NCBI RefSeq assembly: GCF_965641715.1
Contig: NZ_OZ282453.1
Direction: 5' to 3' (one strand)
DNA from: Escherichia coli
Lineage (GTDB): Bacteria; Pseudomonadota; Gammaproteobacteria; Enterobacterales; Enterobacteriaceae
DNA: 64,000 nt
Shown piece after piece: positions 3,241 to 20,351 of the stretch (positions are counted from its first letter, which is position 1; each line of letters begins with the position of its first letter). The notes beneath the pieces were generated by a model. That model saw only the letters and a program-made list of their open reading frames with translations, searched no databases and was not told where the DNA came from. A program made the translations under genes and the position numbers.

Positions 3241-3596
3241 ACTTTCAGGCCCCTCTCATGTAACCAGTGGGCTGCACGCAGTCTGGCGTTTTCCTCACCG
3301 GCAAGCAGTGCGCGGATAATCCCGGCTGCCTCGCTGTCGTCGTCCTTCACTGTGGTATGAAGCGTGATACCCCGGGCCACGCCACGCTTTATCGTGATGA
3401 CGCCTTTTTTCTCCAGTGCGCGAAGATGCTCCACCGCTGCATTCACCGAACGGTATCCCAGCATGGCTGCCACCTCCTGATTGGTTGGCGGGAAACCACG
3501 TTCTTTCTGATAAGAAATCAGCATATCCAGCACCTGCTGCTGGCATTGAGTTAACGTCGTCATTAAGCCCCCACGTAATTCCCTGACAGATACCAC
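3237..3596 (-). CDS. LexA-like winged-helix DNA-binding protein (phage regulator)
   Basis: 119 aa; segment QQVLDMLISYQKERGFPPTNQEVAAMLGYRSVNAAVEHLRALEKKGVI resembles the LexA N-terminal DNA-binding domain. Confidence 0.4.
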   Translation of the reverse strand: MVSVRELRGGLMTTLTQCQQQVLDMLISYQKERGFPPTNQEVAAMLGYRSVNAAVEHLRALEKKGVITIKRGVARGITLHTTVKDDDSEAAGIIRALLAGEENARLRAAHWLHERGLKV

Positions 3597-4057
3597 TCAT
3601 CACCCGATACAGCGCGCTTGCTGCTTTTCCGTAAACACTGCTCACGACGCGCCAGAAAATTGTTTCGTTCTGGCTGGGAGTGGCTTTCACGGAATGCCGC
3701 CATCCACACCGTTGCAGCACGACGGTATAAGCCCCTGGACTCCAGTTCTTCAGCCTGGCGGGTCAGGCACAAAATCACACGGGGATCGTTAGTGCCGACA
3801 TAGAAATTGCGCACAGGTCTGGTTTCACGAACAGATTGTGGTTCCGGCTCCTGCGCTCTCTCAGTCAGGCGCGGGAAATGTCTGCGTGTATCTCCTTCAC
3901 AACGGTGAGCCACACGCCCACTCTGACGTAACTTGCTTGCTGACTGCAGAACGCGCTGCCGTGAGTAACCAGCAAAAGCATCCGCAATGTCTCCGGAAGT
4001 ACACCCCGGATGGGCTTCAATGAATTTCTGAACTTCATTCAAAAGACTCATAATCAC
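3563..4057 (-). CDS. PerC-family-like transcriptional activator (start codon uncertain)
   Basis: Motif AEELESRGLYRRAATVWMAAF resembles the recalled PerC/Pch signature (LE.KGLWRRAA.RW). Confidence 0.35.
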   Translation of the reverse strand: MIMSLLNEVQKFIEAHPGCTSGDIADAFAGYSRQRVLQSASKLRQSGRVAHRCEGDTRRHFPRLTERAQEPEPQSVRETRPVRNFYVGTNDPRVILCLTRQAEELESRGLYRRAATVWMAAFRESHSQPERNNFLARREQCLRKSSKRAVSGDEWYLSGNYVGA

Positions 4058-4872
4058 CCCCTGAATCCTGCCGGGATCTGGCTGTAGTCCACGTTGTCGT
4101 AACTGGCTTTGAAGTACGGGTCCTCGCGTCTGGCTGCAGATACCGCAGGAACTTCCCAGGATTCTTCGAAATGACGATCCGGACCAAAGAACGTGACAGC
4201 CTGTTTCACAAATTGTGTGCCGCTGTTACCCATCGCAGATACCCAGCCCGCGTAGCGTTTCACACCTTCCAGCATGGTTTCGGGGTTTACCCCCTCATTC
4301 AAACGGGCTTTCCAGGCTTTGAAGGCTGCAGATTTTGAATTACCACCAGCACGTTTGGGATATGCCAGCCATGCCTGCTCAAACTCCGGAGAGTATTCCG
4401 GCCGGTTTGAACGAACTCGCACGGACTCATCAACTGATGCACCAACAGCTATTGGTTCATTGACTGGTTCTTTGACTGGTTCAAAAGAGTGACTGGTTCT
4501 GGGTGAATCTCCTGCACTACCCCCTGGTGCAACTCCTGCACTACCTGGTGAATTTGCTGCACCAGATAGTGAATTATTTGCACTACCCCCTAGTGAATCT
4601 CCTGCACCATCCAGATGAAGGAGATAGATATTACTTGAGTTACCTTTTTCACCTTTCCGGGTGACTTTTTTTACCAGCCCGGACTCACAAAGGGCCGCAA
4701 TATGATTCATCACAGAACGTTTGCTAATCTCGCACTGGTCAGCAATATGCTGGTAGCTGGGCCAGCACTCACCCTGATCGCTGGCATTATCAGCCAGCTT
4801 GATCAGAACCAGTTTTCGCAATGGATTACCCACTCGAATTTTCATCGCTTTAACCATCAGCTCCATACTCAT
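4054..4872 (-). CDS. Phage replication-initiator-like protein with N-terminal HTH and low-complexity Gly/Ser/Ala linker
   Basis: 272 aa; N-terminal wHTH region (NPLRKLVLIKLADNASDQGECWPSYQHIADQCEISKRSVMNHIAAL); internal DNA repeats; lambda O-like position. Confidence 0.5.
   Translation of the reverse strand: MSMELMVKAMKIRVGNPLRKLVLIKLADNASDQGECWPSYQHIADQCEISKRSVMNHIAALCESGLVKKVTRKGEKGNSSNIYLLHLDGAGDSLGGSANNSLSGAANSPGSAGVAPGGSAGDSPRTSHSFEPVKEPVNEPIAVGASVDESVRVRSNRPEYSPEFEQAWLAYPKRAGGNSKSAAFKAWKARLNEGVNPETMLEGVKRYAGWVSAMGNSGTQFVKQAVTFFGPDRHFEESWEVPAVSAARREDPYFKASYDNVDYSQIPAGFRG
4500..4620. repeat. About five imperfect tandem 21-24 bp repeats inside the replication gene (iteron-like), followed by an AT-rich stretch
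   Basis: Repeated unit GTGAAT..CTGCACTACC(CC)CTG visible at 4503-4620; resembles the lambda ori layout within gene O. Confidence 0.45.
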
Positions 4873-5105
4873 GCTGCACCTCCGAGATGCTTCATGTTTT
4901 TTCCGGAGCGAAAGGTTATAAGCGGCATACTGACGCGGTAATTACGGCCCAGCGGTTCACAAATCACCTTCTGACATTCACGGTCCACCAGGCTAACACG
5001 TAGAACATGCCCTGCGGGCGTGGTGTACCACTGACCAACGGTAGGAATTGATGTTTTTTTACGCTGAAGCAAACGGCAAATATTGAGGATCAACGGATTA
5101 AGCAT
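4869..5105 (-). CDS. Small hypothetical phage protein
   Basis: 78-aa ORF overlapping neighbours by 4 and 8 nt in the same operon. Confidence 0.3.
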   Translation of the reverse strand: MLNPLILNICRLLQRKKTSIPTVGQWYTTPAGHVLRVSLVDRECQKVICEPLGRNYRVSMPLITFRSGKNMKHLGGAA

Positions 5106-5934
5106 GACGATGCCCTCCGCTGATATTCAGGAAACGGTGAATATGAAGATTAGCCTTATCCGCCAGACGAATACGTTCAGCCTGCAAGTTAAGAAGGGTT
5201 TCTACCAGAACCTGATGCGCCTGCGGATCCGAAAGAGTTACCTTGCGCAGAGCACGTAGTGCAGTTGTTACATAGCTGAGTTTATGTAAGTCTTCATCAT
5301 TCAGACGAGTGAGGGCTGGGACAGTAGCCATGATGGCAGCCTCCGTATGCAATGGATAACTTCCACCACCGGAAACGCCAATTTCGCTGGTGGTGAACTG
5401 AGCAGGGTTGGCGTAACCGGCGCATACGGAAACCGGCGCACCTTTCGGTGCCCCCACCCAGCCCACCATAATTTGGGTATAGCTGAGTTGTAGCAACAAA
5501 AAAGACGCTAACGCGCCAATTGTCGCCGTATGCAATTCCAGGACGCCAATCCCGGCACCCGCTTTATAAGGTGCCTGAACAGTGTAACGTCCCGGAATGG
5601 CAGAATCAATGTGCTGGTGGTCCTTCACACTCAACAAAATCACGCCTGAATTTCCACAAAGGGCTAAAGCACTCATGCGGGTAGTCTTTGCGAAGATAGA
5701 TAACGCGCTGTGTTTCTGGTTCCCAACGAATAACATGGACATAAAGCCCTCTTCCGTCACGAAACCAGCGGTTAAGTTCCCGCACAACTCGCCCCCCACA
5801 GTCAGGTAAAGTTCTCTGTGGTTACTTACAGCCAGGTGATTTGGTAATCTGCATTCATGCCGTAACAACAGGTGTTCAGCGACACTGACCACCAGCTGTT
5901 GCGACAAACGGTTATTTGCCGTTAAACTGTTCAT
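5098..5934 (-). CDS. Hypothetical phage protein (early right operon)
   Basis: 278-aa ORF, co-oriented and overlapping neighbours; no motif recognised. Confidence 0.35.
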   Translation of the reverse strand: MNSLTANNRLSQQLVVSVAEHLLLRHECRLPNHLAVSNHRELYLTVGGELCGNLTAGFVTEEGFMSMLFVGNQKHSALSIFAKTTRMSALALCGNSGVILLSVKDHQHIDSAIPGRYTVQAPYKAGAGIGVLELHTATIGALASFLLLQLSYTQIMVGWVGAPKGAPVSVCAGYANPAQFTTSEIGVSGGGSYPLHTEAAIMATVPALTRLNDEDLHKLSYVTTALRALRKVTLSDPQAHQVLVETLLNLQAERIRLADKANLHIHRFLNISGGHRHA

Positions 5935-20028: not shown

Positions 20029-20115
20029 GCGAAGGTGGCGGAATTGGTAGACGCGCTAGCTTCAGGTGTTAGTGTCCTTACGGACGTGGGGGTTCAAGTC
20101 CCCCCCCTCGCACCA
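20029..20115 (+). tRNA. leuQ: tRNA-Leu (anticodon CAG)
   Basis: 87-nt sequence GCGAAGGTGGCGGAATTGGTAGACGCG ... CCCTCGCACCA; anticodon loop CTTCAGGTG. Confidence 0.9.
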
Positions 20116-20143
20116 AAAACCACGTTGATATTGCTCGCACTGG

Positions 20144-20230
20144 GCGAAGGTGGCGGAATTGGTAGACGCGCTAGCTTCAGGTGTTAGTGTTCTTACGGAC
20201 GTGGGGGTTCAAGTCCCCCCCCTCGCACCA
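20144..20230 (+). tRNA. leuP: tRNA-Leu (anticodon CAG), one substitution relative to the flanking copies
   Basis: 87-nt copy; variable-arm difference GTGTTCTTACGG versus GTGTCCTTACGG. Confidence 0.9.
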
Positions 20231-20264
20231 AACGAGGCGATATCAAAAAAAGTAAGATGACTGT

Positions 20265-20351
20265 GCGAAGGTGGCGGAATTGGTAGACGCGCTAGCTTCA
20301 GGTGTTAGTGTCCTTACGGACGTGGGGGTTCAAGTCCCCCCCCTCGCACCA
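20265..20351 (+). tRNA. leuV: tRNA-Leu (anticodon CAG)
   Basis: 87-nt copy identical to the first. Confidence 0.9.

Follow-up and report, generated by a model that had tools for sequence, protein, structure and literature searches.

The replication initiator gene of a lambdoid prophage in Escherichia coli (RefSeq assembly GCF_965641715.1, contig NZ_OZ282453.1) contains, within its own coding sequence, five tandem repeats that are probably iterons for dimers of the initiator's N-terminal winged-helix domain. Together with an adjacent block of nucleotide-invariant DNA, these repeats are likely to constitute the theta-type replication origin of the prophage. The gene lies on the minus strand of a 64,000-nucleotide (nt) stretch, referred to here as the window, in whose coordinates all positions are given; the iteron sites are numbered 1 to 5 in gene order. 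An earlier note on this DNA had suggested initiator-binding iterons and a candidate phage origin at this place, and every comparative test that we ran favors that suggestion.

Tandem Repeats Finder reports a repeat of period 24 at 4503-4607 (4.6 copies, 64% matches, score 77), and the only other tandem repeat in the window is a triplet of tRNA-Leu genes at 20.0-20.4 kb. The array resolves into five 15-bp cores of the form GTGMA-N5-TKCAC, spaced 24, 21, 21 and 24 bp apart on the plus strand (Table 1), in which four or five of the five arm positions are complementary. The degenerate core GTGMANNNNNTKCAC has five matches in 64 kb, all of them in the array, where 0.38 are expected, and five or more matches occurred in none of 100 shuffled sequences. 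A 19-mer allowed up to three mismatches gave three matches, against 0.01 expected, and none outside the array. The approximately five imperfect direct repeats of 21-24 bp described in the earlier note are thus borne out by both repeat detection and match statistics, as is their position in the middle of the gene in a Gly/Ser/Ala-rich linker: the array codes for amino acids (aa) 89-124 of the 272-aa HTH_36 protein (GAGDSLG GSANNSLS GAANSP GSAGVAPG GSAGDSP), a stretch that AlphaFold2 predicts to be disordered (predicted local distance difference test score, pLDDT, 30-43).

The protein belongs to the HTH_36-type phage replication initiators (PF13730; PHROG 270/8540/391 'replication initiation O-like'). 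HTH_36 (PF13730) is matched at aa 17-67 (E 1.8e-11, 44.1 bits against a Pfam cut-off of 25), PHROG 270 'replication initiation protein' with E 1.7e-88, and PHROG 8540 over aa 1-140 with E 7.8e-62; the N-terminal half ('replication initiation O-like') and the C-terminal half of the initiator have separate PHROGs. An AlphaFold2 model built on an alignment of 69 sequences contains the elements of a winged helix (helices at aa 40-47 and 51-63, wing strands at 67-73 and 79-85), with a predicted recognition helix beginning at aa 51 (KRSVMNHI), followed by a linker at aa 91-156 that is predicted to be disordered (pLDDT 30-43) and by a helical C-terminal domain. Foldseek matches of the N-terminal domain in the PDB are winged-helix regulators, and the C-terminal domain, which presumably recruits host replication proteins, was not recognized. 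A search for homologous proteins with the C-terminal domain gave mostly fragments, and a PDB sequence search with the initiator returned only noise.

If the repeats are sites for this protein, their DNA should matter more than the peptide that it encodes, and comparison with homologues points in that direction. A tblastn search with aa 1-88 alone returned 229 phage records, from which twelve were fetched; they include nine distinct lineages at 55-74% aa identity, three of them from Vibrio and the others from Aggregatibacter, Klebsiella, Salmonella SI5, Min27, Morganella and mEp044. In all twelve, the winged helix is immediately followed by two to eight units of 21-24 nt, and more than 100 further homologous genes likewise have two to eight units at the same place. 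The earlier note had named absence of the repeats from close homologues as the way in which its reading could fail; the repeats were seen in every homologue examined. The sequences of the units and the peptides that they encode differ wholly between lineages and the geometry is kept, with spacings of 21-25 bp (mostly 21-24) and a last interval that is always 24. Dyad-symmetric arms occupy unit positions 4-8 and 14-18 around a 5-bp center, with 3.77 of 5 positions complementary, against 1.29 after shuffling and about 1 in neighboring registers. Between the copies within an array, the arms are 88% conserved, the center 66% and the spacers 24-44%. Such a pattern shows selection on the DNA of the array and not on the peptide.

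The same comparisons bear on a simpler explanation, that the repeats are a by-product of slippage in a low-complexity Gly/Ser/Ala/Pro linker whose DNA has no function of its own. The array does code for a disordered linker, and its copy number varies among close relatives: cdtI (L091, 2501-3385) has eight iterons, its additional 66 bp corresponding to three extra units, and locus L128 has eight units versus four in its relative L129. Slippage of a coding repeat is contradicted, however, by identical units that are read in different frames, by units that are inverted within one array and between lineages, by dyad-symmetric arms in one register only, and by arms that are better conserved than centers and spacers while the peptides differ and the geometry stays. 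Some spacings of 22, 23 or 25 nt occur in 12 of 73 distinct arrays, so that units there are translated in different frames. An identical 20-mer of mEp044 reads GVVTQSH or GSDTESP, and the window-type unit GGTGGTGCAGGAGATTCACC reads VQEIHQ in locus L212 versus SAGDSP in the window. A Shewanella array (L235) contains three copies of GTGAAGGAGATTCAC together with its reverse complement, and L225 does likewise. In a Microbulbifer element the gene strand carries GTGAATCTCCTGCAC four times, and the reverse complement of this sequence is the unit on the gene strand of the window; in Parashewanella a recognition helix identical to that of the window (SKRSVMNH) accompanies a site that is inverted relative to the gene. 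Inverted copies of this kind do not arise from slippage of a coding repeat, and we consider this explanation highly improbable.

Furthermore, across many hosts the type of iteron follows the predicted recognition helix (aa 50-57) and not the C-terminal family. Where position 6 of the helix is M, I or Q (SKRSVMNH, SRRSVINH, TRRSAINH, DKRTAMRH, SERSVQNH, TRTTAINH and others), the sites are GTGnn-N5-nnCAC, or GTAnn in one Xenorhabdus array; where it is R or K, they are TGCCA-N5-TGGCA, GGGCA-N5-TGCCC or TAGGC-N5-AAGCA. This coarse rule on helix position was used for lineages that are not independent of one another, since fine-grained classes of helix, iteron and C-terminal domain, compared by adjusted mutual information, are mostly singletons. 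A rule by which Arg at helix position 3 specifies GTG arms was discarded in favor of position 6, as it is broken by Photorhabdus and Xenorhabdus lineages.

The N-terminal domain, the iterons and the block behave as one module, behind which we found nine unrelated C-terminal families. The partner genes downstream vary with the C-terminal family and encode a DnaB-type helicase, a P-like protein, a primase-helicase or none of these. The C-terminal family of the window stands behind at least five iteron types, and the helix and iteron of the window stand before two C-terminal families. One of the families, that of mEp044 (C3), shows homology to the last 90 aa of P22 gp18 (37% identity, E 2e-13); the N-terminal/iteron unit therefore appears to replace a lambda-O-type unit before the same helicase-recruiting domain. 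This exchange of modules is, among the sequence comparisons, the strongest indirect evidence that the unit would serve in origin recognition. The 'O' protein of Min27 (L088, 2501-3169) has a low-complexity C-terminal part of odd composition (GKPGRKTQLQHSEHSSGNGVKLPGGRQASLPRCWQ) that forms a singleton family, C8; its relative SI5 has a normal C-terminal domain, and the oddity may reflect a frameshift in the Min27 record.

The arrangement resembles that of two mapped phage origins. The lambda origin has four iterons inside gene O that are bound by O dimers, and Stx (Shiga toxin) phages 933W and P27 have six (PMC3349717, PMC7466680). In lambda, as in the window, the iterons lie in the initiator gene, where they code for the link between a DNA-binding N-terminal and a partner-binding C-terminal domain (aa 117-145 of O); they are dyad-symmetric and spaced 20, 24 and 23 bp apart, and the initiator gene belongs to a pR-type early operon after cII. 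Lambda differs in having a Phage_rep_O instead of an HTH_36 domain, sites of 18 bp instead of 15 bp (5-N5-5), a 38-bp element of 79% AT where the window has an invariant 28-nt block of about 57% AT, and a P-type loader gene, for which the window has no equivalent. The GenBank record of P22 places a replication origin inside gene 18 (aa 118-166), so that here too the origin lies inside an initiator gene, whose C-terminus is homologous to family C3 behind the present module. P22 differs in its lambda-O-like N-terminal domain, its TCGGTAAAA-type iterons and its own DnaB-type helicase, gp12. By comparison of these sequences, the N-terminal/iteron modules of P22 and the window would be interchangeable parts with the same job. 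Membership of the window protein in the lambda O/P22 gp18 family was rejected: Phage_rep_O (PF04492) gave no match to it at E<=0.01, a Vibrio homologue reached only E 0.14, and BLASTP against P22 gp18 gave a non-significant E of 6.9. The design is therefore analogous, and not homologous, to that of lambda O in the DNA-binding part.

Iteron plasmids (pSC101, R6K, RK2, pPS10) resemble the window in having a winged-helix initiator and tandem repeats at intervals of about two helical turns. They differ in that their iterons lie outside rep, together with DnaA boxes and an AT-rich region, and in a Rep protein with two winged-helix domains. We rejected an iteron-plasmid replicon for the window, where one winged helix is joined to an unrelated helical domain, the sites are inside the gene and there is no DnaA box nearby.

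The lambda-like origin proposed in the earlier note stood with respect to the repeats, their position in a linker, their dyad symmetry and their spacing, but not with respect to a strongly AT-rich element. The AT-rich segment that had been noted is real (39% GC at 4610-4660, against 50% for the whole gene and 21% for the lambda AT-rich element) but modest; in the gene's direction it precedes the repeats, which it had been said to follow, and it codes for the conserved wing of the DNA-binding domain. The position of its most AT-rich part, 4619-4656, is only 58% AT in an average over 69 lineages. The regional AT maximum in the same average is the block, itself about 56-62% AT, with the next 15 nt; at 59-62% AT it stays well short of the 79% in lambda. 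A terminator-like hairpin with a T-run at 4649-4664 on the plus strand (TCACCTTTCCGGGTGA CTTTTTTT), antisense to the initiator gene, lies within the AT-rich segment; one such match is the level found in shuffled sequence.

The absence of a strong AT-rich unwinding element next to the array leaves room for a second explanation, that the repeats bind the initiator without being an origin, serving autoregulation, handcuffing for copy control, or exclusion by titration of the initiator, with the origin elsewhere. Conservation at the DNA level and co-variation with the helix point to binding sites rather than to origin function as such, and cloned lambda iterons alone inhibit rep-lambda phages (PMC3349717). 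In the 64 kb, however, there is no other tandem array except the tRNA genes and no match to the iterons elsewhere; the linker position, number, spacing and dyad symmetry are those of the mapped origins of lambda and P22; and the array adjoins a conserved block that is the regional AT maximum. We regard a role restricted to binding as improbable.

The block (AGAACCAGTCACTCTTTnGAACCAGTCA) follows directly after the last unit in all homologues except mEp044, the most divergent, which keeps only the core AACCAGTCA in another frame (N-Q-S). In ten lineages found by protein similarity alone, identical residues are encoded by identical codons at 87% of positions in the block (278/319) versus 38% in the N-terminal domain (873/2275). 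The exact 28-mer is present in more than 120 viral contigs, encoding 88 distinct proteins, and in 33 stretches of species-representative genomes. These stretches are from Photorhabdus, Xenorhabdus, Providencia, Proteus, Serratia, Pantoea, Lonsdalea, Shewanella, Pseudomonas, Haemophilus and Microbulbifer, and the block is exact across 38% to 63% GC (0.38 at the Haemophilus locus, 0.57-0.63 in Pseudomonas). In the Microbulbifer element the block is identical at 35 of 36 nt, and the DNA coding for the N-terminal domain at 71%. Where the DNA of the block does vary, the residues vary freely (F to L, V or S; K to N or T; S to Y or C), and AlphaFold2 predicts the block peptide to be disordered. By visual comparison, the block matches neither the IHF nor the DnaA consensus.

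The repeat TGACTGGTTC occurs three times next to the array, at 4461, 4473 and 4490 (0.15 expected), partly inside the interval 4480-4660 of the earlier note, in which it had not been picked out. Close relatives of the window gene have two to four GAACCAGTCA copies; phage Stx2c_EH0430 (L093) is without one 12-bp copy, and locus L180 has one more. In RK2-type origins, Rep binds single strands of sequence-specific motifs that recur in the unwinding element, which by analogy is a possible model for the GAACCAGTCA repeats. Lambda and P22, with different iterons, have a common, strongly A/T-rich sequence after them (ACACAAAAGACA..ACAAAAGA), and the block may, again by analogy, be the counterpart of this conserved half-origin. 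The sequence common to P22 (L214, 1841-1985) and lambda (L215, 520-560) after the iterons reads ACACAAAAGACAnTATnACAAAAGA. Directly after the last P22 iteron comes AATCAGTCAAAC, which differs by a single mismatch from the core AACCAGTCAAA of the present block; this may be coincidence.

We regard the block as a candidate for two roles, a core common to the origins and a junction between modules. Tentatively, and accepting that the proposal could well prove wrong, we suggest that it may be the shared origin core of a large mosaic family of gammaproteobacterial phage replicons, combined with any iteron specificity and any helicase-recruiting domain, where it might act as the DNA site of unwinding, helicase entry or single-strand binding and also as the recombination joint for module swaps. 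An explanation confined to the block is that it is a recombination joint for module exchange, a linear motif (RTSHSFEPV), or both, and not a DNA element of the origin. The block lies exactly at the boundary between the N-terminal/iteron part and the nine unrelated C-terminal families, and its peptide is conserved as well. An identity of 28 nt is about the shortest over which homologous recombination is efficient in E. coli, which would suit a joint. Recombination, however, uses identity and does not maintain it, and further points against this explanation are the codon identity in the block, its exactness in hosts of such different GC content, the free change of residues where its DNA varies, AACCAGTCA in the other frame of mEp044, and the predicted disorder of the peptide. 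We think it unlikely that a joint or motif alone explains the block.

Several points weigh against the reading of array and block as an origin. No strongly AT-rich unwinding element lies on either side of the array, and the 69-lineage profile never exceeds 62% AT. There is no DnaA box near the locus, the nearest (TTATNCACA) being more than 50 kb away. Pfam, NCBIfam and PDB sequence searches gave no match to the C-terminal domain, which has no recognizable family, and no phage loader is encoded for helicase recruitment. The iterons adjoin the N-terminal domain, so that co-inheritance alone yields some co-variation, and the lineages in the helix-iteron comparison are non-independent. Loci found through the exact block were selected for having it; their flanks are nevertheless highly diverged. 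Finally, PMC12315714 describes replication in 'O-only' lambdoid phages as 'not yet understood'.

If the locus is the origin, initiation would proceed as follows. Upon loss of the repressor, the early-right operon (cro-like, cII-like, Ash/C4 region, orf78, rep) would be transcribed and the initiator made. Its winged-helix dimers would fill the five 15-bp sites, which at distances of 21-24 bp would lie on one face of the helix, and would thereby form an O-some-like nucleoprotein complex. The DNA beside the array would be destabilized, the most likely place being the GAACCAGTCA-repeat block or the DNA just past it, where the averaged profile has its AT maximum. The C-terminal domain, on its disordered tether, would then bring in the replicative helicase. 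No helicase, loader or primase is encoded between cI and Q, and the initiator is the only replication gene there; because the phage encodes neither helicase nor loader, the helicase would be host DnaB, with or without DnaC. We infer binding, dimer stoichiometry, the unwinding site, helicase recruitment and the use of this locus as sole origin.

Table 1. Features of the initiator gene and its putative origin, in coordinates of the window
Feature	Position	Strand	Remarks
Replication initiator gene, 272 aa	4054..4872	-	PHROG 270, HTH_36 and near-identical phage genes
N-terminal winged-helix domain, aa 1-87	4612..4872	-	AlphaFold2 pLDDT ~90; Foldseek
Most AT-rich 38-mer of the gene, 31.6% GC	4619..4656		Codes for the wing, KGEKGNSSNIYL; weak candidate for an unwinding element
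Iteron 1 (probable)	4593..4607		Core GTGAATCTCCTGCAC (+ strand), GTGCAGGAGATTCAC on the gene strand
Iteron 2 (probable)	4569..4583		Core GTGAATTATTTGCAC (+ strand)
Iteron 3 (probable)	4548..4562		Core GTGAATTTGCTGCAC (+ strand)
Iteron 4 (probable)	4527..4541		Core GTGCAACTCCTGCAC (+ strand); arms GTGCA/TGCAC, perfect dyad symmetry
Iteron 5 (probable)	4503..4517		Core GTGAATCTCCTGCAC (+ strand); adjoins the conserved 28-nt block
Nucleotide-invariant block	4473..4500	-	AGAACCAGTCACTCTTTTGAACCAGTCA (gene strand), codes for RTSHSFEPV; two GAACCAGTCA direct repeats inside
Third GAACCAGTCA copy	4461..4470	-	12-bp duplication (VKEP/VNEP)
C-terminal helical domain, aa 157-272, family 'C1'	4057..4404	-	aa 160-240 pLDDT ~90 (AlphaFold2)

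No sigma-70-like promoter was found in 3900-5200. An RNA element within the array was rejected, as the fold of the sense strand is not significant (z = -0.89), and Rfam gave no credible family there, a match to 'mir-875' at 22 bits being noise.

The initiator gene is part of a lambdoid early-right operon on the minus strand, downstream of a divergent gene for a cI-like S24 repressor. The operon begins with a cro-like gene, a cII-like gene, an Ash-family open reading frame (ORF) and a 78-aa ORF, which precede the initiator, and continues with a PerC-like gene, a gene for a LexA-type DNA-binding domain, RusA, KilA-N, DUF968/HNH and Q. The initiator gene is 99.9% identical in nt sequence in twelve Stx2c-converting phages, 98-99% in mEp460, SfV (orf39), cdtI, phage 2H10 and Stx2a_WGPS2, and 89% in ST64B. 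Stx2a_WGPS2 (AP012537.1), to which the identity is 98.5% over the gene, is the reference of the 'Eru6' replication type, defined by a Rha/Ash-family gene and then an HTH_36 gene next to cI (Fagerlund et al. 2022, PMC8951638). The window has the corresponding genes, with a Phage_ASH ORF at 5098-5934, orf78 and the HTH_36 gene at the stated identity to AP012537.1, and is of the Eru6 type. Such 'O-only' modules (the phage LLS group and Eru6-type Stx phages) have the same gene order as the window and a single replication gene without helicase or loader; the papers on them describe the genes, and the word 'iteron' appears nowhere in PMC8044961, PMC8951638 or PMC12315714. In the searchable full-text literature, with subscription-only reviews outside its scope, we found no paper that connects SfV, ST64B, mEp460, Min27 or Eru-type phages with iterons or an origin, and no experiment in which such a fragment supports initiator-dependent replication.

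Several neighboring features were observed in passing. Just upstream of the initiator gene, a C4 antisense RNA at 5386-5473 (minus strand; Rfam RF01695, 80.7 bits, gathering score 45) and isrK at 5498-5574 (minus strand; RF01394, 61.2 bits, gathering score 50) were matched, together with a sub-threshold match to the c4-a1b1 target at 5535-5587. The C4 and isrK matches therefore indicate a P1/P7-type C4 immunity RNA module in the early-right operon. All of these matches fall within the 278-aa Ash-family ORF at 5098-5934, the call of which may be over-extended. Downstream, a 164-aa ORF at 3563-4057 (minus strand) contains a PerC domain at aa 100-153, and its start overlaps the initiator stop; this ORF is present in SfV (orf40) and absent in cdtI. 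Three tandem tRNA-Leu(CAG) genes at 20029-20351 (plus strand; 121-bp period) belong to the host chromosome, and the early-left end of the prophage is therefore placed between ~11 kb and 20 kb. Chromosomal prophages are the best matches in E. coli. The same replicon also occurs in circular 'plasmid' records of 34-45 kb: CP098024 (Microbulbifer, 43.5 kb; L216), NZ_CP148393 (E. coli, 44.6 kb), CP077666 (Salmonella, 38.9 kb) and NZ_CP019281 (E. coli, 33.8 kb). They may represent phage genomes that were replicating after excision, or else true phage-plasmids, in which case the replicon supports stable maintenance outside the chromosome.

Among 314 enterobacterial lambdoid phages, a 2025 survey counts 34 that have an O homologue alone, none of them studied (PMC12315714). 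For this class, about one in ten of the enterobacterial lambdoid phages (PMC12315714), the probable origin is now placed within ~150 bp, and lambda-like phages of this kind, including the Shiga-toxin 2c phages, have a probable origin that can be tested. The iteron consensus, the dimer geometry and the correspondence between helix and site make direct experiments possible, and the block and array together provide a sequence signature by which origins could be annotated in hundreds of prophages. The invariant block, which extends across the gammaproteobacteria, is potentially the new part: it could represent a conserved origin element, and a junction between modules, of a new type. If so, it would be a functional counterpart of the conserved A/T-rich half-origin of lambdoid phages, though sequence-specific in character, and would explain how replication starts in 'O-only' phages, including this prophage and the Stx2c phages. 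In Stx2c- and Stx2a-type phages, it is replication after induction that amplifies the dosage of the toxin gene.

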